NCBI GenBank assembly: GCA_033852135.1
Contig: JAWSVB010000022.1
Span: 101,936 to 165,935, forward strand
Source: Gammaproteobacteria bacterium
GTDB lineage: Bacteria; Pseudomonadota; Gammaproteobacteria; QZLD01
Direction: 5' to 3'
Length of the DNA: 64,000 nucleotides
Within the stretch, counting starts at the first letter, position 1. Each line of letters begins with the position of its first letter. Below the pieces are notes generated by a model. The model was not told the origin of the DNA and did no database searches. It worked only from the letters and a program-made list of their open reading frames with translations. Of the stretch, positions 18,028 to 59,320 are shown in pieces. The position numbers were made by a program, and so were the translations under genes.

Positions 18028-19302
18028 TTAGTCACACTCAGCAATTGCTTGCTCTATATCTGCAATAATATCATCTATGTGTTCTATACCTACTGATATC
18101 CGAACTAGATCGTTACTAACTCCTGCTGATTTAAGCTCATCATCATTTAGTTGCCTGTGAGTTGTGGAGGCAGGGTGGCAAGCAAGTGATTTAGCATCAC
18201 CAATATTTACCAACCTTGTTATCAGTTTTAGAGCATCGATAAATTTAGCGCCGTTCTCAACTGCTCCTTTCAGACCAAAGCTTAAAATCCCGCTGGCTTT
18301 ACCATTTGTTATTTTCCCAACCAAACTGTTATCTGGGTGAGATTCTAACCCTGCATAGCTAACCCATGAAACTTTTGGATGATTTTTAAGGTATTCAGCT
18401 ACCTTTTGCGCATTATCACAATGCCTTTCCATCCTAAGTGGTAGAGTTTCAATCCCTTGCAATATAAGAAAAGCATTAAAAGGTGATAACGCTGCACCAG
18501 TATTTCTCAGTGGAACAGTTCTGCAACGTCCTATAAATGCAGCAGGGCCAAACTGTTTTGTGTAAACAACATCATGGTAGGAAGGGTCAGGGTTATTTAG
18601 TGTAGGAAAACGCTCTTTATGTTCTGCCCAAGGGAACTTACCAGAGTCGACAACAACTCCACCAATTGTCGTACCGTGTCCACCCATGTATTTAGTAAGT
18701 GAGTGGATGACGATATCTGCACCTAGTTCAATAGGTCTGCATAGGTATGGGCTGGCAACAGTGTTATCTACGATTACAGGTACACCTTTTGCACGTGCAG
18801 CTTTTGCTAACGCAGCGATATCAGTGATGTTTCCAGCAGGGTTTCCGATCGATTCACAGAAGATAGCTTTGGTTTTATCATCAATTTTACTTATCATCGC
18901 CTCAACATCATTATAAGGGGCGAATCTAACCTCAATACCCTGTTTAGGTAGTGTATGAGCGAATAAGTTATAAGTTCCACCATATAACTTACTTGAGCTG
19001 ATAATATTATCTCCAGCTTCAGCAATTGTTTCTATTGCATAAGTGATTGCAGCCATGCCTGATGCAACAGCTAAACCACCGATGCCACCTTCCATATCCG
19101 CAACCCTTTCTTCCAATACTGCATTGGTTGGATTCATAATCCTGGTATAGATATTCCCAGCTACATCTAAATTAAATAGATCTGCACCATGTTGAGTGTT
19201 ATCGAATGCATAGGATGCTGTTTGGTATATCGGTACAGCAACAGCTTTAGTTGTTTCTTCTACTGAATATCCCGAGTGGATAGATTTAGTTTCGATTTTC
19301 AT
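18028..19302 (-). CDS. metY: O-acetylhomoserine/O-acetylserine sulfhydrylase (PLP-dependent Cys/Met metabolism enzyme)
   Basis: 'TKSIHSGY...AVPIYQTASYAF...HSLTKYMGGHGT' (PLP-Lys region); 424 aa. Confidence 0.88.
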   Translation of the reverse strand: MKIETKSIHSGYSVEETTKAVAVPIYQTASYAFDNTQHGADLFNLDVAGNIYTRIMNPTNAVLEERVADMEGGIGGLAVASGMAAITYAIETIAEAGDNIISSSKLYGGTYNLFAHTLPKQGIEVRFAPYNDVEAMISKIDDKTKAIFCESIGNPAGNITDIAALAKAARAKGVPVIVDNTVASPYLCRPIELGADIVIHSLTKYMGGHGTTIGGVVVDSGKFPWAEHKERFPTLNNPDPSYHDVVYTKQFGPAAFIGRCRTVPLRNTGAALSPFNAFLILQGIETLPLRMERHCDNAQKVAEYLKNHPKVSWVSYAGLESHPDNSLVGKITNGKASGILSFGLKGAVENGAKFIDALKLITRLVNIGDAKSLACHPASTTHRQLNDDELKSAGVSNDLVRISVGIEHIDDIIADIEQAIAECD

Positions 19303-19557
19303 ATGGATTTATCCTAAGTTTTTCACCGAATTTTGAAACTGCGATGCAAGGCCGGTGTCAATCAAGTGGGTAGTTTGTTGTTGTAGTTGATGTTAACAGA
19401 TTTTTTTTGGGATTAAAGGTTTATAACTTTATATACAAATAGCCCAATCAAAAGTTATGATGTCAACGGATTATTGTCTAATATCGTTATATAGAATTAC
19501 CTAACTTAAGTTCTTCTCAGAGCATTGATATATCTTATATACAGGGCTACAAATACC

Positions 19558-20814
19558 ATGAAACCTGATTTGCAAAAGAAACTAATTCTTCCTCTAATTG
19601 TACTAGTAATAAGCTCAATTATTATTGTAATACTTGTAATACTGCGCCCAGATCCTCCGAAAAAACATAAAAAGACAACTGAATATGGTGTCTTAGTGAT
19701 TGATGCTGTAAAAGGCGATTTTCAGCCCTATATACCCCTTTATGGCTTTGTTGAATCGCCTATGAACGCGCAGATTACCGCAGCAATATCCTCCGATGTT
19801 GAAAAAGTGATTGTTAGTGAGGGTGATTTTGTTGAGAAGGGACAGTTATTAATTCAGTTAGACCAGATAGATTATCAACTAAATCTGCATGATCGTGAGG
19901 CAGATTTAACTGATATTATCGCGCAAATTAAGACCGAGCAGCTGCAGTATGAGAATAATAAAGAAGCGATATTACATGAAAAGAGTCTGCTAGAACTTGC
20001 TAAAGGGGAGCTTAAAAGAGCAACAAAATTATATAAAAAGAAGCTTGGTTCTGAAAGCTCACTTGAGCAGGCAAAAAGCTCTGTAGAAAAACAGGAGCTT
20101 TCTTACAATTCTCGCAAGCTAGCTTTGGATCTGTATGACCTTAGGTTACAGCAGTTGCAGGCTAAAAAAATTCGGGGAGAGGCAGCGGTAGAGAGGGCAA
20201 AGCGTGATCTTGCCAGGGCATCAATTTTAGCTCCATTCTCAGGTAGGGTTGCTTCAGTTTATGTGGCTAATGGTGACAGAGTAAGCCCTGGTGCAAAAAT
20301 TATCTCAGTATATTCATTAGAGCAACTTGAGGTAAGAGCAGATATAAACTCAGTTGATATAACAACTATTAGAACTGAGTTAGCTCAAGGTAACTTGTTA
20401 AGTGCTTCTGGAACTATTGAAGGGGAAAGCATCAAATTGCAACTTGACCGTCTTTCTGGAAAAACTGAAAAGGGAAGAACTGGCGTAGCTGGATTATTTA
20501 AGATTACTGATGGTGGTGACAGGTTAACACTGGGAAGATTTATTGAGTTTGGCTTAGAGCTTCCACAGGTATCAGATCTATTCTCAATACCTTTACAGGC
20601 AATTTATGGAAAACAGCGTATCTATATAGCTAAAGATGGAGTAATGCAGCTGATAAATATAGATAAAGTTGGCCAGCATAAGCTACCAAGCGGTGAGGTC
20701 AGAGCATTGGTTAAATCTGAGCAGCTAAGCCAAGGTGATAAGATAATTGTTACCCAAATTCCAAATGCGATCCAAGGATTGCGCATTAAGATTATTAGTT
20801 CTTCTGAGCAGTAA
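19558..20814 (+). CDS. RND efflux periplasmic adaptor (membrane fusion protein, HlyD family)
   Basis: ATG at 19558 (the listed ORF starts at an upstream TTG). N-terminal TM, long coiled-coil region, beta-barrel and lipoyl-like segments. Directly upstream of an RND permease. Confidence 0.8.
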   Translation: MKPDLQKKLILPLIVLVISSIIIVILVILRPDPPKKHKKTTEYGVLVIDAVKGDFQPYIPLYGFVESPMNAQITAAISSDVEKVIVSEGDFVEKGQLLIQLDQIDYQLNLHDREADLTDIIAQIKTEQLQYENNKEAILHEKSLLELAKGELKRATKLYKKKLGSESSLEQAKSSVEKQELSYNSRKLALDLYDLRLQQLQAKKIRGEAAVERAKRDLARASILAPFSGRVASVYVANGDRVSPGAKIISVYSLEQLEVRADINSVDITTIRTELAQGNLLSASGTIEGESIKLQLDRLSGKTEKGRTGVAGLFKITDGGDRLTLGRFIEFGLELPQVSDLFSIPLQAIYGKQRIYIAKDGVMQLINIDKVGQHKLPSGEVRALVKSEQLSQGDKIIVTQIPNAIQGLRIKIISSSEQ

Positions 20815-20832
20815 CGGATTAGGTGACACAAC

Positions 20833-23800
20833 ATGGAAACAAATAAAAACAATTTAATAACGATGTTCGTACAACATCGTGTTGCTCCAAATCTGTTGAT
20901 GATTATTTTGATTCTTGCTGGAGCATGGGGTTTAAATAAACTTCGTACCCAGTTTTTTCCATCTTTTGAGACTGGATATATTGTTGTTTCAGTAATTTGG
21001 ACTGGAGCAAGCTCCGAAGATATCGAAGAGGGTATTACAGTTCCGTTAGAGCAGGAGCTAAGAACAGTTGATGACCTATATGAGATAAAGTCATCTTCTT
21101 CTGATGGAGCTTCAGTTATATCGCTTCAGTTTGAAGAAGGGATAGATATGGCAATGGCGCTGGATAATGTGAAGGATGCCGTTGATACGGTTACAACTCT
21201 TCCAGAATCAGCTGAAACTCCCCGGGTAAAACGGGCTATCCATTATGATTTGATCTCTAAACTAATGATAACTGGCGATGTAGATATTGATGAGTTACGC
21301 CATTGGGCACGAGATATAGAAACTGATTTACTCTCGCGCGGAATAGCTAAGATAGAGATCTCAGGTATGCCGGAAGAGGAGATATCAATTGAGGTTCCCA
21401 ACTCAAAGTTAAAAGAGCTGAATATGACATTGGCTCAGGTATCGCAAAGAATTTCAGATCAAAGTAAAGACGTACCAGTTGGAAAAATTGGTGGTGACCA
21501 GGTTTCAAAGCAGATTCGTGGCCTTTCTCAAAAAAGGAAAGAGACTGAATTTGCGCAAATACCATTAGTTGCAAACCCATCGGGTGAATTTGTTTTACTA
21601 GGAGATGTTGCACAGGTAGAGCGGAAAAATAAGCGCAAAGAGATAACAACTTTTTATAAAGGTAATCCAGCAATATCGCTACGCCTTCTTAGATCGGATA
21701 AATCTGATTCCCTTGAAGGGGCAAGAATTCTTCAAGATTGGCTGCAAGAGTATCAAGTAAAACTACCAGATGGTGTTGAGCTGATTGTATATCAAAAGCA
21801 ATGGGAACTGATTGAAGATAGGATATCAATCTTATTAGAGAACGGTATTCAAGGGATTATCTTAATCATTATAGTGCTATTTCTATTCTTAAACGGAAGA
21901 GTAGCTTTCTGGGTGATGATGGGAGTTCCTGTATCGTTTTTAGCTGCACTAGCCATATTGTATTTTTTTGGCGGAACTATAAATATGCTCAGTTTGTTTG
22001 GGCTTATTATGTCGCTGGGGATCATAGTCGATGATGCAATTGTTGTGGGGGAGGATGCTCAAACTCACTATGACCGAGGTGAGAGCGGTTTAACTGCTGC
22101 TAATGGTGGCGCACTTAGGATGCTTGCGCCGGTTGTTGCATCATCAATGACCACAATGGCAGCCTTCTTTCCTTTAATGATGATTAGCGGAATTATGGGA
22201 AAAATCTTATTTGATATTCCTATGGTCGTTATCTGTGTGATATTGGCTTCTTTGGTTGAATGTTTCTTGGTTCTACCGGGTCATTTAAAGCACTCATTTG
22301 ATGGTTTGCATCATGCAAGGCAAAGTCGTATCAGAGATTATCTAGATAACAAATTTAATCACTTTAAAGATAATATTTTTAAACCATTAGTTACTAATGC
22401 AGTTGCTTATCGCTGGACAACAATATTTGCAGCTATAGCTTTGTTAGTAGTTGTAATGTCTTATTGGATATTAGGTTATATGTCGTTTTCTTTTTTCCCA
22501 TCACCAGAAGGAAAGAGGTTGTATGCAGACGTTTCTTTTGTTGCGGGTACTCCAAAAAACACCGTGATAAATTTTGCTAGCGATGTTGAAAAAGCATTGT
22601 ATAAAACAGATAAGGATCTTGGTGGTGGGTTAGTTACCACTGCAGTTTTATCTCTTGGAAGAACCTCATCATCTAATGATGGCAATTATTCTATAGGTGA
22701 TGAAAGCTTTTGGCTTGAGGTGGAGTTGCTTGAGTCAGATAAAAGAGAGGTCAATAATGCGCAGTTTTTACGTGAATGGCAGAGTAATGTTGTAAAAGTT
22801 TCTGGTATAGAAAAATTTGCATTGTATGCACCAAGAAGAGGTCCTCCGGGGAAAGATCTAGATGCAAAGATTACAGGGCAACCGCTTAATATATTAAAAG
22901 CAGCAGCTGAAGAGATAGCCGAAAACATGCAATCATACCCCGGTGTGAGTGGAGTTGCTGATAACCTCCCTTATGGAAATGAGCAGATAATCTTTCGTAT
23001 AAATGCCCAGGGGCAGGTCTTAGGACTTACTTCGCAAGAGATAGGAAGACAGCTTCGAGGTGCTTTTGATGGCTATCTAGTTCAAACATTCCAAGATGGT
23101 ATAGAAAAGGTTGAAGTGAGAGTAAGTCTTCCTGAAATTGAAAGAGATAGGCTGGCTACTTTATCTGAGTTTGCCATTGTGCTGCCTGATGGTAATACCG
23201 CATCATTAGCAACTGTGGTTGATCTAGATAATGATAGAGGTTATGAAAAAATCCAGCATAGTGCTGGTGAGAGAGCAGTGCATGTGACTGCTGATGTAGA
23301 TTCTGCACTTAATAATAGTAATAAGTTAATCGATGCTATGAAATTGGACGTTGTTCCAGCAATTGCAGAAAAGTATGGAGTAACTATCGCTTTTGAGGGC
23401 AAAGCTCGTGAACAGAATGAAGCTTTGGCTGATATGCAAATTGCATTGGTTTTATCACTGATTGTGATTTATATCATTCTAGCCTGGGTATTTGGCTCGT
23501 ATGGATGGCCGCTTGTTGTTATGTGCGCAATCCCATTTGGTCTTATTGGAGCTGTTTCTGGGCATATCTTTATGGGAATTGATATGACTATCCTTTCCTT
23601 GTTTGGCATGTTTGGCCTTACAGGTATTGTGGTTAATGACTCTATTATCCTCGTAGTCTTTTATAAAGAGCTGCGGCAGAAAGGAGTGCCCATTGATAGA
23701 GCTATAGTTGAAGCTGCTTGTCAGCGTCTAAGAGCAGTTATATTGACATCATTAACCACTATTGGTGGCTTGATATTCTTGGTGTTTGAAACATCTCTAC

Positions 23801-24000
23801 AAGCTCAGTTTTTGATTCCAATGGCTGTATCAATGGCATTTGGGTTAGCTTCAGCAACATTCTTGGTTCTTTTGGTTATCCCAGCGATGTTATCAGTGCA
23901 AGAATCAGCCAATATTCTAAGTAGAAAGATCATAGGGGCAGGTGTTGATGGAATAAAAACTGGGGTTAAGGCTTGGTTGCCAAAACCTGATGACAAATAA
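20833..24000 (+). CDS. RND family efflux permease (AcrB/HAE1-like, 12 TM)
   Basis: 1055 aa, two large periplasmic loops, 'GLIMSLGIIVDDAIVVGE' is the conserved TM4 motif. No outer-membrane factor gene adjacent. Confidence 0.88.
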   Translation: METNKNNLITMFVQHRVAPNLLMIILILAGAWGLNKLRTQFFPSFETGYIVVSVIWTGASSEDIEEGITVPLEQELRTVDDLYEIKSSSSDGASVISLQFEEGIDMAMALDNVKDAVDTVTTLPESAETPRVKRAIHYDLISKLMITGDVDIDELRHWARDIETDLLSRGIAKIEISGMPEEEISIEVPNSKLKELNMTLAQVSQRISDQSKDVPVGKIGGDQVSKQIRGLSQKRKETEFAQIPLVANPSGEFVLLGDVAQVERKNKRKEITTFYKGNPAISLRLLRSDKSDSLEGARILQDWLQEYQVKLPDGVELIVYQKQWELIEDRISILLENGIQGIILIIIVLFLFLNGRVAFWVMMGVPVSFLAALAILYFFGGTINMLSLFGLIMSLGIIVDDAIVVGEDAQTHYDRGESGLTAANGGALRMLAPVVASSMTTMAAFFPLMMISGIMGKILFDIPMVVICVILASLVECFLVLPGHLKHSFDGLHHARQSRIRDYLDNKFNHFKDNIFKPLVTNAVAYRWTTIFAAIALLVVVMSYWILGYMSFSFFPSPEGKRLYADVSFVAGTPKNTVINFASDVEKALYKTDKDLGGGLVTTAVLSLGRTSSSNDGNYSIGDESFWLEVELLESDKREVNNAQFLREWQSNVVKVSGIEKFALYAPRRGPPGKDLDAKITGQPLNILKAAAEEIAENMQSYPGVSGVADNLPYGNEQIIFRINAQGQVLGLTSQEIGRQLRGAFDGYLVQTFQDGIEKVEVRVSLPEIERDRLATLSEFAIVLPDGNTASLATVVDLDNDRGYEKIQHSAGERAVHVTADVDSALNNSNKLIDAMKLDVVPAIAEKYGVTIAFEGKAREQNEALADMQIALVLSLIVIYIILAWVFGSYGWPLVVMCAIPFGLIGAVSGHIFMGIDMTILSLFGMFGLTGIVVNDSIILVVFYKELRQKGVPIDRAIVEAACQRLRAVILTSLTTIGGLIFLVFETSLQAQFLIPMAVSMAFGLASATFLVLLVIPAMLSVQESANILSRKIIGAGVDGIKTGVKAWLPKPDDK

Positions 24001-24111: not shown

Positions 24112-25278
24112 CTAAGCTTTTGCAACCTGTTCACGCTTATTTTTGTTCAGCATGACGGCATTAAAATGCTCTACCCATTTATCAGAAAACTGAGTGCCTG
24201 AACATGCATTTATCTCAGATATACCTCTGATATATGTACGCTTGTGATCTCGGTCAGATCTATTATTTGTCATGGAGTAAAAAGCATCAACAATAGCCAT
24301 TATCTTGGCTCCATCAGAGATGCTAGCGCTTTTTAGTCCCTCTGGATAACCTTTCCCATCTGGTCTTTCATGGTGTTGTTGCACTATGGTGCCAGTATCA
24401 TTCCAATTTATTAACCTTTTAGTGATAGATGCACCCTGCGATGTATGGCGGTTGATTAGATTAACTTCATCTTTGCTTAGTTTGCCCTTTTTAAACATTA
24501 CATGGTTGGGTATAAATGCCATGCCGATATCATGCAAGCAAACAGCAGCTGTTAGTTTACTTGGGTCTAGTGGATTTCCGGCAGATTCATTTATGCTAAG
24601 TGCAAGCTCGATTAACTGCTGCGTTCTACCTTCCCAAGCGGGATTCTTTTTATCAATTTTGGCTGCAAGCATCCGGAAAAATTTTAAATCATCCCGCATC
24701 CCTTGGGTTAACGAAACATCATTTGCTTCAATAGATTCTTGGTTTTTATTCCTCTTAGGTTTGATATCTTTTTCAGGTTCTGGTGCAGTAGTTGTTTCAG
24801 CTGGTACAGGGTTAAATCTACCAGTGATAAGGGTGATAAGTTTTTCAGCTTCATCAGTATATTCAGCATCTTTTGCTTTTGAAATCTTAGTTAATAGAGT
24901 TTGAATCTCTTCACGTTGAAATTCAGCAATAGACTTGTGATTAATTACTGCATAGATAACCTCTTTTAAACGATCAAGAGAGATTAGTACTACATCGCAT
25001 AAAGTATCATTGAATTGGATTTTTTTGGTTTTGATCGAGTAAATTACATCTTCAATTGCTTGGCTTAAAGATACAATTGGGTCAAGTTCACATACAGTAG
25101 CATTGGATTTGACTGAATGAATAGCTCGGAAACAGTCATCAATAAGAAACTGGTCATCAGGTTGACTAATTAGAGTTGATAAGTTTGTTTCGATAGTTGC
25201 ATAACTTTCAGAAAAGTTATCAAGCAGGTCCTGAATTAATTCTTCTTCAACATTGTGGATATAGATTTCTTCAGACAT
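24112..25278 (-). CDS. HPt-like domain fused to HD-GYP c-di-GMP phosphodiesterase
   Basis: C-terminus: 'HDIGMAFIP...HHERPDGKGYPEGL' (HD and GYP motifs). N-terminus: 'CFRAIHSVKSNATVCELDPIVSLSQAIEDV' resembles the CheA-P1/HPt consensus 'FRAAHSIKGGAGTFG'. Pro/Thr/Glu-rich linker between them. Confidence 0.7.
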   Translation of the reverse strand: MSEEIYIHNVEEELIQDLLDNFSESYATIETNLSTLISQPDDQFLIDDCFRAIHSVKSNATVCELDPIVSLSQAIEDVIYSIKTKKIQFNDTLCDVVLISLDRLKEVIYAVINHKSIAEFQREEIQTLLTKISKAKDAEYTDEAEKLITLITGRFNPVPAETTTAPEPEKDIKPKRNKNQESIEANDVSLTQGMRDDLKFFRMLAAKIDKKNPAWEGRTQQLIELALSINESAGNPLDPSKLTAAVCLHDIGMAFIPNHVMFKKGKLSKDEVNLINRHTSQGASITKRLINWNDTGTIVQQHHERPDGKGYPEGLKSASISDGAKIMAIVDAFYSMTNNRSDRDHKRTYIRGISEINACSGTQFSDKWVEHFNAVMLNKNKREQVAKA

Positions 25279-25427
25279 TTTAATTCACACTAAATTAACA
25301 ACACACATTAATGAATATAGCTAATTTTTGAAGTAAATCTGTATAGAGGTTCAAAAATGGATAGGATAATAGTTCGAATGTTTCACAATAATAACAAAAG
25401 ATGAAAAATTACCCCTAGAGGTAGGAA

Positions 25428-26294
25428 CTATGGAGATATCTTCTCTTTAGATATTATCCCTTCAAGCCACTGTATTGCTTCATTAACAGTTTGAACCCTG
25501 GTACGAGGGTCAGGTCTGAGCATTTGGGCAATTAGTTGTGATAGTTGAGACCCTACAAGCGGGGATATGAACTGGTCCGGGAGAGAGCAAACATTTTTTG
25601 CATTGAGGATTTGTTCAGCAGTTGAAGAGCCGGTATTCCACTTTTTTCCTGTAACAAGCTCATAAAAAATAACTCCAACTTGAAATATATCGCTTTGTTC
25701 CAGCCATTGTTCTCCTTGGGCTTGCTCAGGACTCAGATACTCAGTAGAACATTGGGCTGTAGTATGCATTACTTTATGTTTTTTAAAGAAAGCAGAAGCA
25801 AAATCCACAAGGTAAACATGTCCTTTTTTACCGAGAATAATATTTTCTGGAGTGATATTGCCATGAATTACAGGCTCTTTGCATAGGTGGAGGTATTTGA
25901 GTGCTCCGAGTATTTGCGATACAACGCCAACTGCAAAGCGAGGGTTCTTATAAATCTGTGCTGGCTTTTCAGCGCACAGCGCTTTTAGCGACATACCTTT
26001 AACGTAATTATATGCAATATAATGGATGTCATTGACTTTGCCGTGCTCAGTATATTTAGGAAACTGTTTGCCTTTGAGAAGGTTTAAGATTTTTCCTTCA
26101 AGTTGGAATTGCTTAATTGCTTTTTCATTTGTAGAAAGTTTTGAATCTAAAAATTTAATATAAAGTGGTGCCTTATCCTTTTTTTCAGCCACGCCAATAG
26201 CGGCTCTATAAAAAGAATCTTTTTTAAGTGGTCTGAGAAAATAGTTTCCTGTACGAAAAGGAAACGGAGTTGCACTACCTTGTTGTGTGTTCAT
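25428..26294 (-). CDS. Protein-kinase-like protein (Ser/Thr kinase fold) with substituted catalytic loop; probable pseudokinase
   Basis: Kinase landmarks are present: 'YIKFLD' (VAIK Lys), 'EGKIL' (alpha-C Glu), 'YLSPE' (APE). The HRD catalytic loop reads 'HGNITPEN' (no Asp) and DFG reads 'DFA'. Confidence 0.6.
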   Translation of the reverse strand: MNTQQGSATPFPFRTGNYFLRPLKKDSFYRAAIGVAEKKDKAPLYIKFLDSKLSTNEKAIKQFQLEGKILNLLKGKQFPKYTEHGKVNDIHYIAYNYVKGMSLKALCAEKPAQIYKNPRFAVGVVSQILGALKYLHLCKEPVIHGNITPENIILGKKGHVYLVDFASAFFKKHKVMHTTAQCSTEYLSPEQAQGEQWLEQSDIFQVGVIFYELVTGKKWNTGSSTAEQILNAKNVCSLPDQFISPLVGSQLSQLIAQMLRPDPRTRVQTVNEAIQWLEGIISKEKISP

Positions 26295-26681
26295 AACTGC
26301 TACCGCTCATCTATTCCTTGTTATAGTTATTTAGATGTCTGCCATCATTTTTTTATAATTAATCTGGCAACTTGGGTAATCTTTTTTGATTTACCTATGC
26401 AGCCAATAATGTATATAACATCATATTTTTACTGACTCGGCAAGATAATTGTTTCTACTCTACTATTTTGATTTGTAAGAATATTATTCTATATAACTAA
26501 TTGAATATTGATTTCAAAAAAACTGTTATCTGCGTCACAAAAATTGATTTTATAGTGTGGGTGGTTTCAAGAGTAATAATGACCTGAAAAAGAACGGTAA
26601 CAGAGCTTATATAGAGTGTACGCCACCTGGAATATTCCCTATAATGCACAAATTGAAATGTAAACAGATGAGCTGAGAATT

Positions 26682-27527
26682 ATGAACAAGATGAAAAACG
26701 TCCTTCCTAATGATATTAAACAGATTGTAGATGTAGCTTTAAAAGAGGATGTTGGCGCTGGAGATTTAACTGCTAGCCTAGTGCCACAAACATCAGCAAA
26801 AGCTGCTGTTATTTGTCGTGAATCAGCTGTTATTTCTGGTCAGGAATGGTTTGATGAGGTTTTTCGCCAGCTAAGTTCAGATATTGATATCAATTGGCAT
26901 GTGGCTGATGGAGATGCTGTTAAGCCGGGAACTCTATTATGTGAATTATCAGGGGACGCTCAAGTTCTTCTGACAGGTGAAAGAACAGCTCTCAATTTTC
27001 TGCAATCTCTTTCTGGTGTGGCTACAATTACAGCTCATTATGTTTCACTATTAAAAGGTACTAAAACCAATATCTTAGATACAAGAAAAACAATCCCAGG
27101 TTTGAGAACAGCTCAGAAATATGCAGTTAAATGCGGTGGTGGTATGAACCACCGTATGGGATTATTTGATGCTATTTTAATCAAAGAGAATCACATCATG
27201 GCTGCAGGTACAATTGAAAATGCTGTTGCCAATGCACGCAAATTATATCCAGAGACCCCAATAGAGGTTGAAGTTGAGAGCCTTGATGAGCTAAAACAGG
27301 TTTTAAATACTGAAGCTAATTCAGTTTTATTGGATAATTTTTCCAGAGGAGATCTACGTACAGCGGTATCTTGGTGTGAGGGAAAGCTTAAAACAGAAGC
27401 ATCTGGTGGAATTGAAGAGGACACTATTCGGGAAATAGCTGAATGTGGAGTAGATTTTATTTCGGTAGGGGCTTTGACAAAGAATGTACGGGCGTTAGAC
27501 CTATCGATGCGCTTTGAAATTAGTTAA
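26682..27527 (+). CDS. nadC: Nicotinate-nucleotide pyrophosphorylase (quinolinate phosphoribosyltransferase)
   Basis: 'LKEDVGAGDLTA', 'LTGERTALNFLQ', 'ILDTRKTIPGLR', 'MLDNF', 'EASGGI' are canonical NadC motifs. Confidence 0.92.
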   Translation: MNKMKNVLPNDIKQIVDVALKEDVGAGDLTASLVPQTSAKAAVICRESAVISGQEWFDEVFRQLSSDIDINWHVADGDAVKPGTLLCELSGDAQVLLTGERTALNFLQSLSGVATITAHYVSLLKGTKTNILDTRKTIPGLRTAQKYAVKCGGGMNHRMGLFDAILIKENHIMAAGTIENAVANARKLYPETPIEVEVESLDELKQVLNTEANSVLLDNFSRGDLRTAVSWCEGKLKTEASGGIEEDTIREIAECGVDFISVGALTKNVRALDLSMRFEIS

Positions 27528-27707
27528 ATCAACAGGCCTAAATGCCTAATTGTCATGTTATTAGGATTTTTTAAGAGAATAAACATGGGGCACCCATTTA
27601 AAATGCATAATAACTGAACTAGTATTAGTTTATATAAATAGATTTTGTATATCCTGTATATACAGCAAATTTTTTAATTATTAGTTTAATTCGGTGTTAA
27701 TTAGGTA

Positions 27708-28703
27708 ATGGTTGTAAGATCAAGGCGTAGGAAGCAAAAGAAAGATGTAGAGCAGGGAAGTAATCCACTTCAGGAACTTATCGATCTTAAAGATGAGTAC
27801 TCATCGATAAAGGATGATTTTCTTGAGGAGGAGAGTGGCTCATATTCTGAAAAAATTCTTGATATATCTAAACGTTTGCAGCAGATGTGCGATGCGGATA
27901 CCGATTTGCTTTTGGCCTATTTTCAGTTAAACCGTGAAGATGACTATGATGTGATTCAACCTTTATATTCTGGTGTCATTTGTGAAGTTATTAGCGCCAA
28001 AAAAGTTAAAGATCCAGATGAAAGGTTAATGATTATAGCTGCTGCATTAACTCATGATATTGGAATGCACACCCTAAAAGATATAATTCAAAATCGAGCA
28101 GTACCACTCACTCCAGATCAGCTGGCCGACCTTAAGCTACATCCAATTAGATCTATAAAATATCTACGCAAGTCAGGTGTTAAAAGTGATATATGGATAA
28201 AGTCTGTACAGCAACATCACGAAAGGCTAGATGGTTCAGGTTATCCACATGGCATAAGCAATGACGATATATCGCTTGGAGCTAAAATCATCGCAATATC
28301 AGATGTCTTTATAGCAATGACTAAACCTCATGCTAATAGAGAAGGGGCGATTGCAAAACATGCTCTTACCGAGTTATTTACCAGTCGTGGGGATAAAGTT
28401 GATAATGAATTAACTCAGCTGTTTATTCGTGAGATGGGGTTTTTTCCACCAGGATCGATAGTAAAACTGATTAATGGTGATATTGCTCTGGTAACCCATA
28501 GAGGGCAAACAGCAACTCAACCAATTGTTCAAAGTATCATTGGACCTCGTGGGGCTCCATTTGAAAAGCCAATTCCGCGTAAAACATCGCATGAGGCTTT
28601 TGCTATAAAAGATCTGGAAGCTGGTGATGAATATCGCAAAATGGCCTTTAAATTGGCTGTTCAGCTTTGGAAGAGTGACAAGATTCATTTTTTAAGTAGT
28701 TAG
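27708..28703 (+). CDS. HD-GYP domain c-di-GMP phosphodiesterase with unassigned ~100-aa N-terminal domain
   Basis: 'HDIGMHTL...HHERLDGSGYPHG...ISDVFIAMT'. Confidence 0.82.
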   Translation: MVVRSRRRKQKKDVEQGSNPLQELIDLKDEYSSIKDDFLEEESGSYSEKILDISKRLQQMCDADTDLLLAYFQLNREDDYDVIQPLYSGVICEVISAKKVKDPDERLMIIAAALTHDIGMHTLKDIIQNRAVPLTPDQLADLKLHPIRSIKYLRKSGVKSDIWIKSVQQHHERLDGSGYPHGISNDDISLGAKIIAISDVFIAMTKPHANREGAIAKHALTELFTSRGDKVDNELTQLFIREMGFFPPGSIVKLINGDIALVTHRGQTATQPIVQSIIGPRGAPFEKPIPRKTSHEAFAIKDLEAGDEYRKMAFKLAVQLWKSDKIHFLSS

Positions 28704-28902
28704 TTCTAAAATTATTATTTGATGTAATTCCCCTCTATCTTATTGTGACTATTATCGTTACTATGGCTAACTATGAAAACATACTGTTTTCTTGGAAGAT
28801 TTTGCATATGTAAGTGCATTTTTTATGGGTAAAAATTGTAATTTTTAGATCGTTTTTATATAAAAACAGCGTAATTTATTGAAGTATAAGGGGTATATTA
28901 TT

Positions 28903-29475
28903 ATGAAAAGACTTATTGTTTTGATGTTTTCTGTGGTTTTGTCCCAGTCAGTTTTGGCTGATGAGGTATCTGATGCTATTTCAGCGGCTTTAGATAGTTA
29001 TAAAGCAGGGGATACTTCGGCAGCTATAACAAGCCTTGATTTTGCAAGTTTAAAATTACGTAATTTAAAAAGTGAATCAATTGCAAAGCTAATGCCTGAA
29101 GCTTTAGAAGGTTGGACTGTAATTGAAACAAATAAAGAATCTCATGCTGCTTCAGCTTATGGTGGAATGGTGCTTGCTGGTAAGAGTTATGAGAAGACAG
29201 GAAGTGATTTAAGTATTGTTGTAATGACTGATAGCCCTTTAGTGCAATCTACCGCAATGATGTTTGCTAATCCAATGATGGTCAAGCTTAGTGGAGATAA
29301 AATACTTGATATTAATGGCCAGAAAGCAATTCTTCACTTAATTGATGGAGTTGGGAGCATTCATATTTTGCTTGATAGTAGAATACTTGTCACAGTTGAT
29401 GGGAACAATGTTAAGCAAGAAGAGCTAGAAAAGTATGCTTCAGGTATAAATTTTGAAGAGTTGATTAAGTTGTAA
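28903..29475 (+). CDS. Secreted/periplasmic hypothetical protein
   Basis: ATG at 28903 after RBS AAGGGG. Signal peptide 'MKRLIVLMFSVVLSQSVLA'. No motif recognised. Confidence 0.5.
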   Translation: MKRLIVLMFSVVLSQSVLADEVSDAISAALDSYKAGDTSAAITSLDFASLKLRNLKSESIAKLMPEALEGWTVIETNKESHAASAYGGMVLAGKSYEKTGSDLSIVVMTDSPLVQSTAMMFANPMMVKLSGDKILDINGQKAILHLIDGVGSIHILLDSRILVTVDGNNVKQEELEKYASGINFEELIKL

Positions 29476-29502
29476 TAATAGAATGTTTTAAGCTTGAATA
29501 TT

Positions 29503-29537
29503 AAAAAGCCTACCTAATAAAATTAGGTAGGCTTTTT
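29503..29537. terminator. Bidirectional intrinsic terminator
   Basis: AAAAAGCCTACCTAAT-loop-ATTAGGTAGGCTTTTT, between converging genes. Confidence 0.85.
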
Positions 29538-29564
29538 GCTTTTTAGGCAAGTCCTAAGTAAAAA

Positions 29565-29927
29565 TTAAAACTGGTCAGTACTCAAAAGAACTAAAGTGCA
29601 TGCCTCTTCATATGCAATACCGTTGTCTTTTAAAGCTACTTCGAGTTTTTGATTTTCTGTCCCTGGATTAAAAATTACTCTGCCAGGATTTAGGGCAATA
29701 ATCTCTTCGATCATCGCGGAAGATATATTCGCATTTACATACATGGTGAGTGTATCGACAGATTCTTTAACGGAGCTAAGATCGGGCTTGACAGGCGTAC
29801 CGTTGATCTCTTTTAACTTAGGGCTTATCAAAACCACTTCGTGCCCATGTTCTTGCAGCATTAGCTGCGCACGGTGTGCATACCTATCAGGTTTATCGCT
29901 TGCTCCAAGAATCGCTACTGTTTCCAT
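29565..29927 (-). CDS. CoA-binding domain protein (YccU-like)
   Basis: 'VAILGASDKPDRYAHRA...GHEVVLISPK' is the Rossmann-like CoA_binding_2 signature; 120 aa. Confidence 0.7.
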   Translation of the reverse strand: METVAILGASDKPDRYAHRAQLMLQEHGHEVVLISPKLKEINGTPVKPDLSSVKESVDTLTMYVNANISSAMIEEIIALNPGRVIFNPGTENQKLEVALKDNGIAYEEACTLVLLSTDQF

Positions 29928-29938
29928 AATTTATTACT

Positions 29939-30208
29939 CTACTTTTTCTTTCTAAGAGGGTGGGTGGCGACAAAATGTTTTAATATTTTGCGTAGTTTAT
30001 CTGCATGTTCTGTATCACCTGATTCTTCAGCATCTTTAATATCATCCAAAATGATCTTTTTTATTTTAGGTATACCATTGTCGCAGTTGACTAGGTATTC
30101 ACCCATCTCCATCGCTGCTATTTCAGGAATGTGTTCATGTTCTGCGATTGCCCTAATTTCATCTTCAGTTAGGTCACAAATGCCTAAACAATCTTCATAA
30201 GTTAACAT
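29939..30208 (-). CDS. Hypothetical small acidic protein
   Basis: ORF only, 89 aa. Tightly spaced (11 nt) with the CoA-binding gene on the same strand. Confidence 0.35.
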   Translation of the reverse strand: MLTYEDCLGICDLTEDEIRAIAEHEHIPEIAAMEMGEYLVNCDNGIPKIKKIILDDIKDAEESGDTEHADKLRKILKHFVATHPLRKKK

Positions 30209-30316
30209 ATGGGGATCCCCTTTTAATGATGATACTACTATTATAAAAAATAGGTCATAAGAGCTTGGTAAGCAATGTTTAGAAGAAGATTTTTATAAAG
30301 AATTTGCCTATAAAGG

Positions 30317-31240
30317 TTATTTTATTTTACGGTATTTTGAGTTTAAATACTCTAAAGAGCGACTAGCCATATCATCGCCGCCATCTATCCAGTGAATTTC
30401 ATTGCCATGTTTTTCTAAACGGCGAAAAAAAGTTTCTTGTTTTTTAGCAAATCTTTTTATTGCTGAGTTAAGTTTTTGAAACATATCATTTCGCGTTATT
30501 TGTTTTTGTAGGTATTGTGCTACAAATCTATATTCCAGTCCGTAGAAATCGAGAGTTTCATAACTTACCCCAGTGTCTATTAATCCTTTAACCTCATCAA
30601 TCATACCCATAGCAATTCGAGCTTTTAAACGCTCAGTTATTCTTGCATGCAGTTGATGGCGTTCCCACTTAATCCCTAATATTATTGGGCGTAATTCAGG
30701 AAAATCTGGTTCTTCTGGAGAATTTTTTTCTGCTAAAGCTATCTCAATTGCTCTAATTGTTCTGTTTCTATCGGTAAGATCGGTTGTGTTATGGGTATTG
30801 GGTATCAATTCTAGAAGGTATTTTTGTAATTTGGCTTCATCGTACTCAGCTAACTTATCTCGTAGCTGTTTGTTTTCTGAAGCATAAGCAAAATGATATT
30901 TTTCAATAACTGCTTGTATATATAACCCAGTACCGCCTGCTAAGATGGGAGTTTTATTGCGCGAAGAGATGTCGCTAAAACAGTCAAAAAATCTTTTTTG
31001 ATATTCGTATACATTAAATTCGTATCCTGGGTCTAAAATATCGATTAAGTGATAATTTATATCACCATACTCATCAAGATCTTTTCCGGTTCCAATATCC
31101 ATCCCTCTATAGACCTGCCTGGAGTCGGCAGAAATAATTTCCCCATCTAAATTATTTGCAATATCAACTGCTAATTTAGTTTTTCCGGTAGCTGTAGCTC
31201 CGAGGATAACTATTAAATTGGGATTGTTGCTTTGTTGCAT
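30317..31240 (-). CDS. miaA: tRNA dimethylallyltransferase
   Basis: P-loop 'GATATGKTKLAVDIA' and 'ISADSRQVYRGMDIGTGK', matching E. coli MiaA 'GPTASGKT...ISVDSALIYKGMDIGTAK'. Confidence 0.9.
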   Translation of the reverse strand: MQQSNNPNLIVILGATATGKTKLAVDIANNLDGEIISADSRQVYRGMDIGTGKDLDEYGDINYHLIDILDPGYEFNVYEYQKRFFDCFSDISSRNKTPILAGGTGLYIQAVIEKYHFAYASENKQLRDKLAEYDEAKLQKYLLELIPNTHNTTDLTDRNRTIRAIEIALAEKNSPEEPDFPELRPIILGIKWERHQLHARITERLKARIAMGMIDEVKGLIDTGVSYETLDFYGLEYRFVAQYLQKQITRNDMFQKLNSAIKRFAKKQETFFRRLEKHGNEIHWIDGGDDMASRSLEYLNSKYRKIK

Positions 31241-31459
31241 ATCGGTCCAGGTTGAAGGCAGTAATAGGCGCCAATCATCTCATTTTTAGGAATTAAATCC
31301 AATTAAGCCCTATAAATAGTTCTTAATAACTAAAAAAACAGGACTCAGGTAACATTACAGCAAAAGATTTACAGTAATTAATGGTAACTAAACTATTATT
31401 TTAGTAATTAGTATAAATGTAATTTATCTATTGATGGTTGGTAGTTGTCGGAATGTTTA

Positions 31460-33292
31460 ATGAAAGTAGATAGAGAGTTATTAAAACTTAATATTCTCAT
31501 AATAGATGATCAGCAAATAAATCATGATTGTATCAATGAAATATTGATTGCTTCAGGGTTTGAGCAGATTATCAATGTAACAGATTCCAGAAAGGCGATA
31601 GGGGTCTATCGCACCTTATCACCTGATTTAATCATTATTGATTTGAAAATGCCATTTCAAGATGGAACCTCTCTTTATCAAGATATGATTGATGTATCTG
31701 GTGGACATAAGCCAAATGTATTGGCTCTTGCACATAGAGATGATAGTGACTTAGTAAAAGAGGCTCTTGAAGCTGGTATATCCGATATTATTTACAAACC
31801 TCTAGTTGAAATAGAAATTATTCCTAGAGTAATAAATCAATTAAAAATTTGTAGCTTATATAAAGAAGTAATAGATTTTAAAAAAATTAAACATCAATAT
31901 GGCAATAAAAACATAGATAATCTTCAGCTTGAAACAGAGAAACGCCAGGCTGTTGAAGATAAGCTATTGCATATGGCTATGCATGATCCACGTACCAATT
32001 TTCCCAATAGAATGATGCTTCAACATAGGGTTGGAGAGCTGGTAGAGTTGGAAAAAATAAAACAATTTTATGTAATAGTGGTTTATCTAAAGCATTATGA
32101 TGATATAAACCATGCTCTTGGTTACCATAATGGCGATAAAATCCTTATGCAGGTTGCAGTAAGATTAGGCGATTTAGCTAAGCTCGTTGATGGTGCTATC
32201 CAAATTGACTCACATGGTGGGAGTGAAGATTACCTTTCAGTTCTTGAAGGTGTAAATTTTGCTTTTTTAGTTGATGCTTCAAAAATCAGCGTTGATATTA
32301 ATGATATAGCTTTGTCAGTCTTATCTGATATGCAAAGGCCATTCGATTTTCATGGCATGTCTTTGGATATTGGAGCATATATTGGGATTTCTTCTTACCC
32401 TGAACACGGGAAAAACTCCAATATCCTGATGCAACATGCGCATATAGCTATGGAGATGGCACATAATAATGTTGAGCACTATGCCATTTATTCACCTGGT
32501 GAAGATCCATACAGTGCAAGGCGTTTGATGTTAATGGTTGAGTTACGTGCAGCCATTGAAAATAATAATCTAAAACTTTTTTATCAACCACAAATGTCAC
32601 TTCTAAATGAAGAAGTTGTAGGTGTGGAAGCCTTAATTCGCTGGATTCATCCTAAACTGGGGTTCATACCGCCTGATGAGTTTATCCCAATTGCGGAGCA
32701 AACAGGGATCATAAAGCAATTAACTCGCTGGGTTATAAGGGAAGCAATTAAAAAATGCTATTACTTTTTTGCAAAGGATGAGCCTTTGCGAATGAGTATT
32801 AATATCTCACCTAAAAATATTCAAGAGCCAGATTTAGCAGATTTTATAATTGAGTCACTAGCAGATTATAGTTTGCCTAATGATCTACTAATGCTCGAAT
32901 TAACCGAGAATATTAATTTTGCTAGTAATGGGATTGCTAAAAATAATTTAGATTCGCTGCACTCTAAAAATATTAAATTTTCAGTAGATGATTTTGGTAC
33001 GGGGTATTCTTCACTTTCATACCTAAAGCAACTTCCATTGGCTGAGCTGAAAATTGATAGATCTTTTGTTATGGAGTTAATGGATAATCCTGATGACATT
33101 ATGATTGTACATACAACTATTGAGATGGGGCATAACCTGGGGCTAGAGATTGTAGCAGAGGGTGTGGAAGATGAGCGCTCATGGAATATGCTGCGTGATT
33201 TGGGATGCGATGTAGTGCAAGGGTACTATCTAGGTAGACCAATGCCAGAGGATGATCTGGATAAGTGGTTGGCTAATGGTGGAGTCTTGTAG
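31460..33292 (+). CDS. Response regulator receiver, degenerate GGDEF, and EAL c-di-GMP phosphodiesterase
   Basis: ATG at 31460 (the listed ORF starts at a TTG at 31445). Receiver 'ILIIDDQQ...IIIDLKMPFQDG'. GGDEF-like region 'HDPRTNFPNRMML...' with the signature replaced by 'HGGSEDY'. EAL motifs are intact: 'EALIRW', 'DDFGTGYSSLSYL', 'KIDRSFV'. Confidence 0.82.
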   Translation: MKVDRELLKLNILIIDDQQINHDCINEILIASGFEQIINVTDSRKAIGVYRTLSPDLIIIDLKMPFQDGTSLYQDMIDVSGGHKPNVLALAHRDDSDLVKEALEAGISDIIYKPLVEIEIIPRVINQLKICSLYKEVIDFKKIKHQYGNKNIDNLQLETEKRQAVEDKLLHMAMHDPRTNFPNRMMLQHRVGELVELEKIKQFYVIVVYLKHYDDINHALGYHNGDKILMQVAVRLGDLAKLVDGAIQIDSHGGSEDYLSVLEGVNFAFLVDASKISVDINDIALSVLSDMQRPFDFHGMSLDIGAYIGISSYPEHGKNSNILMQHAHIAMEMAHNNVEHYAIYSPGEDPYSARRLMLMVELRAAIENNNLKLFYQPQMSLLNEEVVGVEALIRWIHPKLGFIPPDEFIPIAEQTGIIKQLTRWVIREAIKKCYYFFAKDEPLRMSINISPKNIQEPDLADFIIESLADYSLPNDLLMLELTENINFASNGIAKNNLDSLHSKNIKFSVDDFGTGYSSLSYLKQLPLAELKIDRSFVMELMDNPDDIMIVHTTIEMGHNLGLEIVAEGVEDERSWNMLRDLGCDVVQGYYLGRPMPEDDLDKWLANGGVL

Positions 33293-58996: not shown

Positions 58997-59072
<76 letters not shown>

Positions 59073-59153
59073 ATATTCAAAGGCCCTGGTAAATCCAGGG
59101 TTTTTTAGTATAGAAGTTTATTTAAGGTTTATACTGAAACTGCACCAACTCAA

Positions 59154-59227
59154 GGCTAGGTAGCAAAGTGGTTATGCAGCGGCCTGCAAAGCCGTAGACG
59201 CCGGTTCGATTCCGGCTCTAGCCTCCA
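59154..59227 (+). tRNA. tRNA-Cys (anticodon GCA)
   Basis: GGCTAGGTAGCAAAGTGG...CCTGCAAAG...GGTTCGATTCCGGCTCTAGCCTCCA. Confidence 0.9.
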
Positions 59228-59232
59228 AATTC

Positions 59233-59320
59233 GGGGATGTGGTGGAATTGGTAGACACGAGAGACTTAAAATCTCTTGGCTATTGCGGCCGTGCCGGTTC
59301 GATTCCGGCCATCCCCACCA
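59233..59320 (+). tRNA. tRNA-Leu (anticodon TAA), class II with long variable arm
   Basis: GGGGATGTGGTGGAATTGGTAGACAC...CTTAAAAT...GGTTCGATTCCGGCCATCCCCACCA. Confidence 0.9.

Follow-up and report, generated by a model that had tools for sequence, protein, structure and literature searches.

Pseudokinases are defined by sequence as kinase-fold proteins in which at least one of the β3 lysine, the HRD aspartate and the DFG aspartate is absent (PMC13519141). In the eukaryotic HRN pseudokinases HER3/ErbB3 and JAK2 JH2, and in STRADα, asparagine takes the place of the catalytic aspartate while the fold is kept; these proteins act allosterically on a partner enzyme, and the nucleotide that they bind is a conformational ligand (PMC13519141). 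In bacteria, pseudokinases are known as a group, although hardly any experiments have been done on them, and a 2025 review lists seven described families, namely ActPs1, ActPs2, ActPs3, GLW, CP1, DYD and DLHK (PMC12599244). Here we describe a gene on a 64,000-nucleotide stretch of contig JAWSVB010000022.1 from a gammaproteobacterial assembly (GCA_033852135.1), hereafter called the window. The gene encodes a stand-alone Hanks-type kinase domain and is followed on the same strand by a gene for a protein with an HPt and an HD-GYP domain. Judged from its sequence and its position among relatives, we conclude that it is a new, very rare bacterial Hanks-type pseudokinase. The gene and its motifs, the nucleotide coordinates of which were all checked by translation, are as follows.

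25428-26294, minus strand: kinase-like gene, 288 amino acids (aa), ATG start; a stand-alone Hanks-type fold and predicted pseudokinase (open reading frame (ORF), Pfam, AlphaFold2 (AF2) and Foldseek).
26205-26231, minus strand: β1-β2 loop PLKKDSFYR at the position of the Gly-rich loop, with zero glycine (alignments).
26151-26165, minus strand: β3 strand LYIKF with the ATP-anchoring Lys47 kept (aligned to VAVK of StkP; clade-invariant; model strand 44-49).
26094-26108, minus strand: αC segment FQLEG with Glu66 kept (alignments; model helix 57-72).
25842-25865, minus strand: catalytic loop HGNITPEN, with Asn146 for the catalytic Asp and the metal-binding Asn151 kept (aligned to HRDLKPQN of StkP).
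25797-25805, minus strand: DFA for DFG, with Asp164 kept and the Gly lost (alignments); NFE, NFS or NFA in orthologues.
25725-25733, minus strand: SPE, the APE motif, kept (alignments and translation).

The preliminary description of this stretch had recognised a eukaryotic-like kinase fold in this ORF, and both the ORF boundaries and the fold proved correct. The protein matched the Pfam Pkinase profile (PF00069) with an E value of 4e-27 and 95.7 bits (cut-off 31.7) over profile positions 19-253 of 263, and its top sequence matches among solved structures were StkP (2.9e-20), PknB (1.8e-15) and Stk1 (about 2e-15). The AF2 model, for which a 42-sequence alignment served as input, had a predicted local distance difference test score (pLDDT) of 91.4 and a predicted TM-score (pTM) of 0.90. 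Foldseek matched the model to PknB, PknA, Stk1 and CaMKII at TM-scores of 0.7-0.86, with PknB as the best match (E 9e-18, TM-score 0.77-0.86). The topology of the model is canonical: β3 spans residues 44-49 and αC spans 57-72, helix 118-137 and strand 152-154 flank the HGN loop, and strand 160-162 precedes DFA. The profile match above the curated threshold, together with the bilobal fold, places the protein within the Hanks-type protein kinase fold. It consists of the kinase domain alone and is predicted to be soluble, without a transmembrane segment and without PASTA or sensor domains. No second kinase-domain ORF was found across the 64-kb window.

Directly upstream of the start codon (26295-26365, minus strand), the orthologues at loci L001, L002 (5932-6000) and L009 (5932-6000) are annotated with a 21-residue N-terminal extension, giving proteins of 309 aa. 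The equivalent DNA is conserved in the window and at locus L032, but stop codons interrupt the reading frame there. Two explanations fit this difference, a wrongly called start in the orthologues or a lineage-specific extension.

In the HMMER alignment with StkP (E 2.9e-20), PLYIKFL of the window protein pairs with EVAVKVL, FQLEG with FQREA and VDFASA with TDFGIA, and the segment YLSPEQA is the same in both. The catalytic-loop segment PVIHGNITPENIIL pairs with GIVHRDLKPQNILL of StkP, so that Asn146 stands at the position of the catalytic Asp and Asn151 at that of the loop Asn. The preliminary description had read HRD as HGN and DFG as DFA, with the β3 Lys, the αC Glu and the SPE landmark present, and the StkP alignment and the translated coordinates agree with it on each of these motifs. 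It had also proposed an alignment to Hanks-type kinases as a safeguard against misplacing the HRD region; this region is correctly assigned, since the HMMER alignment and the canonical topology of the model fix the motifs.

Measured against the motifs of active kinases, the window protein has a mixed inventory. No glycine of the GxGxxG pattern is found in its loop PLKKDSFYR, and this position varies among its close orthologues (KKDSFY, KKGDVH, KKNNNQ or KKSCYH); the sister family of intact kinases described below carries EGGIC or GGM. Lys47 and Glu66 are invariant. The catalytic Asp is replaced by Asn146, and HGN is found in all 16 sequences of the clade. Of the DFG motif, Asp164 is present and the Gly is absent; in five of the seven orthologue clusters the Asp is gone as well. 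Where HRDLK of the catalytic loop has become HGNIT, the change from Lys to Thr is not counted as degradation, because the intact sister family has Ser at that place (HGDISSEN). With the HRD Asp gone throughout the clade and the gene under purifying selection, the protein conforms to the sequence definition of a pseudokinase. The earlier wording, a pseudokinase or atypical kinase, is thus well supported by the clade-wide HGN, the loss of the Gly-rich loop, the degradation of DFG and the purifying selection. The degeneracy of the Gly-rich loop and the loss of the DFG Asp in orthologues are two points that the preliminary description had missed.

Compared with the PknB/StkP-type Hanks Ser/Thr kinases, which are its best sequence and fold matches, the window protein has the same bilobal fold and subdomain order. 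It also has in common with them the β3 Lys, the αC Glu, the catalytic-loop Asn, the YLSPEQA P+1/APE segment, the subdomain IX Asp and the subdomain XI Arg. It differs from them by the absence of the Gly-rich-loop glycines, by HGN for HRD and DFA for DFG, and by the absence of transmembrane and PASTA or sensor domains. With HER3, JAK2 JH2 and STRADα it is homologous at the superfamily level only, and it differs from these proteins as a stand-alone domain whose orthologues also lose the DFG Asp.

The window protein resembles the described bacterial pseudokinase families in combining a bacterial Hanks fold with conserved degradation of catalytic motifs. It has the Asp to Asn change in HRD in common with ActPs2, but nothing else of the ActPs2 pattern. 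ActPs2 proteins are found in Actinobacteria and have Arg for the β3 Lys, Asn for the HRD Asp, a DFG deletion, insertions of 32 aa and about 250 aa, and a C-terminal transmembrane segment (PMC12599244). The window protein keeps the Lys, has neither the insertions nor the transmembrane segment, and comes with its relatives from gammaproteobacterial metagenome-assembled genomes (MAGs), and it is therefore not a member of ActPs2. CP1 proteins are cytosolic and partly proteobacterial, with a kinase domain that is always fused to a COG3899 ATPase domain (PMC12599244), which separates them from this 288-aa protein consisting of a kinase domain only. In GLW, HRD is replaced by GLW and the Lys is lost, and in DLHK the HRD Asp is kept (PMC12599244), both unlike the window protein; the motif patterns of ActPs1, ActPs3 and DYD differ from it as well. 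Judged by motifs and domain content, none of the seven families accommodates the combination of the Lys, the Glu, HGN and DFA in a stand-alone protein of 288 aa.

The clade of the window protein is small. It comprises seven clusters (P0001-P0007) at 69-99% identity among 5.8 billion clustered proteins, all of them on contigs of uncultured Gammaproteobacteria MAGs. An exhaustive profile hidden Markov model search of 1.84 billion representatives added one close outgroup, P0169, which in turn served as the query that led to P0327. When JGI metagenome contigs were scanned for further clade members, the matches had 24% identity only. The motif states of the clade and its relatives are as follows.

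Wider family of 280-350-aa stand-alone kinases (more than 15 sequences, Moraxellaceae/Pseudomonadales MAGs): loop GG present, HGD or HSD, DFG.
Intermediate P0169: loop without glycine, HGD, DFG.
Intermediate P0327: loop partial (GKNG), HGN, DFG.
Window clade (16 sequences): no loop glycine, or a single one in a few orthologues (PLKKG..); HGN in 16 of 16; DFA in 11 (the P0001 cluster, the window copy and P0002) and NFE, NFS or NFA in 5.

A neighbour-joining tree placed P0169 and P0327 together as sister to the clade, and inside the clade the DFA pair stood apart from the five NFx clusters. Bootstrap supports of about 50 on obviously solid clades of this tree look like a rooting artefact, and the 100% pairs alone were relied on. 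The β3 Lys, the αC Glu, the loop Asn, the APE segment, the subdomain IX Asp and the subdomain XI Arg are invariant throughout. Based on the motif states across these groups and on the tree, we conclude that the key catalytic residues were lost stepwise along the lineage. Decay of the phosphate-anchoring loop came first, then toggling between Asp and Asn in the catalytic loop, then loss of the DFG Gly, and finally loss of the DFG Asp.

The sister family of small, catalytically intact gammaproteobacterial kinases (P0008, P0174, P0177, P0192 and P0199; loci L011-L018) has 28-34% identity to the window protein. The two are alike in their single domain of 280-350 aa, the non-RD catalytic loop (HG-), the Tyr gatekeeper and the signature KPSYLSPEQA...W..RSD.YQ.G..FYE. 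The sister family differs in the loop GG, in H[GS]D, which all its sequences carry as HGD or HSD, and in the kept DFG. Its genes lie beside FHA, TadE/G-like or MORN-repeat genes and never beside an HPt-HD-GYP gene. At L005 and L012, intact sister kinases are encoded divergently from the gene of a 577-580-aa FHA-domain protein. At L013 and L015-L018, a TadE/G-like Flp-pilus gene is located upstream of the intact kinase, and at L013, L016 and L018 a MORN-repeat gene is located downstream. The idea of one FHA partner common to the whole sister family does not hold, as the FHA neighbour is found in one subgroup only and the others have the TadE/G-like and MORN-repeat neighbours.

The kinase-like gene is well conserved. 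Among clade members, pN was 0.09-0.19 and pS 0.72-0.85; these values are given in place of dN/dS because synonymous sites are saturated in most pairs, and the single computable pair gave a dN/dS of 0.09. At the same loci, pN was 0.11-0.15 for nadC, 0.10-0.19 for the HPt-HD-GYP gene and 0.08-0.16 for a second HD-GYP gene nearby. Purifying selection on the kinase-like gene thus equals that on nadC and both neighbouring HD-GYP genes. Invariant residues span the full length of the protein, and the ORF is intact in every genome. The low pN with saturated pS therefore indicates that the pseudokinase is functional and that its gene is not in decay. Since the NFx orthologues lack both active-site Asp residues and are yet equally conserved, there is a strong case that the function common to the clade cannot be Mg-ATP phosphotransfer.

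We consider it fairly probable that this soluble single-domain Hanks fold has lost phosphotransfer and is kept for a non-catalytic role, as a pseudokinase acting by binding. It would act as an allosteric regulator or a scaffold. With the kept Lys47-Glu66 pair, Asn151 and the conserved pocket-lining residues, its pocket may still bind nucleotide as a conformational ligand, in the manner of STRADα and HER3. The leading candidate for a partner would be the CheA-P1-like HPt-HD-GYP phosphodiesterase encoded 149 nucleotides (nt) downstream.

Several observations weigh against a purely non-catalytic role. The main alternative is a genuine low-activity or atypical kinase, in which Asn146 together with Lys47, Glu66, Asn151 and Asp164 would give a slow (auto)phosphorylation that is itself selected. 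The window protein still has these last four residues. The HRN-type pseudokinases HER3 and JAK2 JH2 are mentioned with weak residual activity, and discussed as partly active, in a passage of PMC13519141 that cites Shi et al. 2010. As HRN pseudokinases are reported to keep weak activity and the window protein retains these residues, weak catalysis is possible in the DFA subclade. The Asp to Asn change alone is also not tied to the new genomic context, because the two intermediates differ (HGD in P0169, HGN in P0327); P0327 moreover has HGN alongside an intact DFG, and its loop keeps part of the glycines. The family is non-RD (HGD), so that phosphorylation of the activation loop would be unneeded. 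Against weak catalysis stand the phosphate-anchoring loop, which is without glycines and variable in the clade, and the loss of the Mg-binding DFG Asp in five of the seven orthologue clusters, which are equally conserved. There is no conserved compensating acidic residue in the catalytic loop, where Glu150 is Ala in the NFx subclade. We regard a weak kinase as credible but unlikely.

A repurposing of the fold for other chemistry, such as AMPylation (SelO) or glutamylation (SidJ), appears improbable to us; in its most extreme version, the protein would phosphorylate His54 of the neighbouring P1-like HPt domain. This neighbour does have a phospho-accepting His in a CheA-P1-like domain, without a kinase domain of its own, but the usual kinase for P1 domains is the P4 domain of CheA. 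Bacterial kinase folds with degraded motifs can hold new activities, as SelO and SidJ demonstrate (PMC12599244). In the window protein, however, no family-specific new catalytic motif is visible, and it scores as an ordinary PknB-like Ser/Thr kinase domain and not as SelO or SidJ. The NFx orthologues are also without the metal-binding Asp, whereas SelO and SidJ have Asp at the DFG position (Table 1 of PMC12599244).

We consider it very improbable that the protein is an anti-phage kinase of the PD-T4-6 type, a defence system made of a single gene. PADLOC models of PD-T4-6 did match the protein with up to E 6e-36 and 122 bits, and the NCBIfam MADS6 kinase model matched at 1e-30. The generic PknB_PASTA_kin model scores the same (125 bits, cut-off 450), so that the PD-T4-6 and MADS6 scores reflect the shared kinase domain only. 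As the catalytic Asp is also absent, the neighbours have no PADLOC matches, and the synteny is of a stable housekeeping kind (nadC, miaA and the Cys/Met enzyme gene) across genomes with saturated dS and not that of a variable defence island, a defence system is effectively excluded. A functionless relic in decay, which the progressive loss of catalytic motifs might suggest, is the least probable reading of all and is effectively refuted by the pN/pS comparison with nadC, the intact ORFs, the residues invariant over the whole length and the confident predicted fold.

The features of the downstream gene, and those of the spacer that separates it from the kinase-like gene, are as follows.

24112-25278, minus strand: HPt-HD-GYP gene; CheA-P1-like HPt domain at about residues 12-152, disordered linker 156-187, HD-GYP domain (Pfam, AF2 and Foldseek).
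25117-25119, minus strand: His54 of the HPt-HD-GYP protein, predicted phospho-accepting His, conserved.
24529-24534, minus strand: HD motif, conserved.
24343-24375, minus strand: motif HHERPDGKGYP, conserved.
25279-25427, minus strand: spacer between the kinase-like and HPt-HD-GYP genes, 149 nt; the conserved portion, 25284-25357, is proximal to the HPt-HD-GYP start.
25351-25357, minus strand: spacer block TTTTTGA, invariant in the five-orthologue alignment.
25336-25341, minus strand: spacer block CAGATT, also written CAG(A)ATT, invariant in the same alignment.
25314-25321, minus strand: spacer block GCTATATT, with a -10-like TATATT, invariant in the same alignment.
25301-25306, minus strand: spacer block GTGTGT, invariant in the same alignment.

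The HPt-HD-GYP protein matched the Pfam families Hpt (1.9e-8) and HD_5 (2.8e-25). Its His54 and Lys57 (FRAIHSVK) are conserved, its HD and HHExxDGxGYP motifs are invariant, and the phosphodiesterase is predicted to be catalytically intact. The AF2 model (pLDDT 83, pTM 0.79) consists of a helical HPt bundle, a disordered linker and an HD-GYP domain. With Foldseek, the C-terminal half matched the solved HD-GYP domains of DvhD, PA4781 and PmGH (9rbz, 4r8z and 4mcw), and the N-terminal half matched CheA P1 domains at TM-scores of 0.8-0.9 and a root-mean-square deviation of 1.9 Å (1i5n, TM-score 0.89). Despite the disordered linker of 30 residues the pTM reaches 0.79, a hint that the bundle of the HPt domain may pack against the HD-GYP domain. 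The architecture occurs in at least 45 clusters from gamma- and betaproteobacteria, for example Ectopseudomonas and Chitinibacter. In a preprint with a census of HD-GYP proteins, the term 'HPt' occurs 0 times and the architecture is unmentioned (10.1101/2021.11.05.467447). It is comparable to the RpfG-type REC-HD-GYP response regulators, in which a phosphorelay module likewise controls an HD-GYP phosphodiesterase (10.1101/2021.11.05.467447). It differs from them in the fusion to a CheA-P1-like HPt domain instead of REC, and in the neighbour, which here is a kinase-fold protein and not a histidine kinase.

The preliminary description had placed the HPt-HD-GYP gene about 150 nt downstream of the kinase-like gene in the same orientation; the two are indeed on the same strand, with a gap of 149 nt. 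It had further suggested an operon that ties a kinase-fold scaffold to the turnover of cyclic diguanylate (c-di-GMP). The part of this suggestion that stands is the genomic arrangement: the pair has the common strand, the short gap and the absence of a terminator that characterise an operon, and the adjacency is clade-wide. The HPt-HD-GYP gene follows the kinase-like gene at every clade locus with a visible downstream side, namely in the window, L037 (an independent assembly of the window sequence), L032, L001/L010, L002-L004 and L009. The two genes also stay adjacent where the neighbour on the far side differs, as at L001, which is without the resistance-nodulation-division (RND) module. What does not stand is adjacency outside the clade, and the gap itself contains a promoter-like block.

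In the proximal part of the spacer, about 80 nt long, 32 columns are invariant, compared with 5.8±2.5 in 300 shuffles, and the longest invariant run is 7, compared with a maximum of 3. The blocks stay invariant in the five orthologues despite saturated synonymous divergence. A -10-like CTATATT is found 33-35 nt 5' of the HPt-HD-GYP ATG in five of five orthologues, with a conserved C at -13 and no sigma70-like -35 element; it may be a stress-sigma or activator-dependent promoter. A consensus scan of the coding strand of the spacer detected no terminator-like hairpin and no full sigma70 match, and RNA structure in the spacer was not significant (fold z-score -0.6). The conserved promoter-like block at a fixed distance suggests that the HPt-HD-GYP gene has its own transcription start, and that the block is a dedicated, probably regulated promoter of this gene. 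Alternatively, the block may be a conserved element in the 5' untranslated region of a bicistronic mRNA.

This conserved promoter-like element, which the HPt-HD-GYP gene appears to own, is one of several points that weigh against a specific partnership. The pairing occurs in a single narrow lineage whose synteny is conserved in general, and it represents one evolutionary juxtaposition; the adjacency may be plain inheritance, because synteny in the clade is conserved on the nadC side too. Beyond the closely syntenic relatives, adjacency was found neither in the outgroups (P0327, P0169/P0062) nor at the HPt-HD-GYP homologues with 52-32% identity. P0327 (HGN/DFG) is located between an HU gene and a porin-like gene, and the HPt-HD-GYP homologue of the same sample is at another locus. 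P0169 (HGD/DFG) has its gene near nadC and is thus an orthologue by position; its assembly, GCA_041156785.1, carries the HPt-HD-GYP homologue on another contig, behind a divergent GAF gene, and nothing recognisable as an HPt gene start was found in the 145 nt after the P0169 gene, where the contig ends. None of the five more distant HPt-HD-GYP loci examined has a kinase gene beside it; this holds for the homologues at 52, 41 and 32% identity.

On balance, co-transcription of the kinase-like and HPt-HD-GYP genes is possible. A functional partnership of the pseudokinase with the HPt-HD-GYP protein, and with it a tie to c-di-GMP turnover, is plausible but tentative. More doubtful is the specific proposal that the pseudokinase is a dedicated partner, a dead Hanks-fold module recruited beside the HPt-HD-GYP gene to gate the phosphorylation state or the phosphodiesterase activity of its product. 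In the literature searched, we found no report of a pseudokinase or Hanks-fold protein coupled to an HD-GYP enzyme, and no description of a junction of kinase-fold signalling, His phosphorelay and c-di-GMP turnover.

The further surroundings of the gene pair in the window are as follows.

18028-19302, minus strand: Cys/Met pyridoxal-phosphate (PLP) enzyme gene.
19525-24000, plus strand: RND membrane-fusion protein and pump.
26682-27527, plus strand: nadC.
27708-28703, plus strand: second HD-GYP gene; the N-terminal part of about 90 aa is without a Pfam match.
28879-29475, plus strand: hypothetical ORF of 198 aa without a Pfam match; its hydrophobic N-terminus resembles a signal peptide.
31445-33292, plus strand: REC-GGDEF-EAL gene.
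58997-59320, plus strand: tRNA cluster with Gly(GCC), Cys(GCA) and Leu(TAA).

In the window, L002 and L009, the RND efflux module separates the HPt-HD-GYP gene from the Cys/Met PLP-enzyme gene. At L001 it is absent and the PLP-enzyme gene follows directly after the HPt-HD-GYP gene, an indel beside the conserved gene pair. On the other side, the second HD-GYP gene is followed by the hypothetical protein gene, a CoA-binding protein gene, miaA and then the REC-GGDEF-EAL gene. The position of the 198-aa ORF is conserved in the orthologous loci, with a 191-aa gene at L001. Three c-di-GMP turnover genes, for the HPt-HD-GYP, second HD-GYP and REC-GGDEF-EAL proteins, thus lie within 9 kb (24112-33292), and all are kept in the orthologous loci. 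The REC domain of the REC-GGDEF-EAL protein could serve as a phospho-acceptor for the HPt domain. Across the window (1-64000), the G+C content is about 36%, GC skew is positive in almost all 2-kb bins, and the cumulative skew rises monotonically. The positive skew indicates that the plus strand is probably the leading strand throughout, which would place the pseudokinase and HPt-HD-GYP genes on the lagging strand.

The identification of this lineage is of interest for the evolution of the kinase fold, within the practical limit that the family is extremely rare and all its members are from uncultured gammaproteobacterial MAGs. The small lineage represents a living-sequence record of the route from kinase to pseudokinase, with every stage under purifying selection, and it offers a natural series for resurrection and back-mutation work on how a kinase turns into a pseudokinase. 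If the pseudokinase were a dedicated partner of the HPt-HD-GYP protein, the pair would directly connect signalling through a eukaryotic-like kinase fold with His phosphorelay and c-di-GMP turnover. A real link to the HPt-HD-GYP protein would constitute a new input into c-di-GMP signalling and draw attention to the P1-HPt-HD-GYP architecture.

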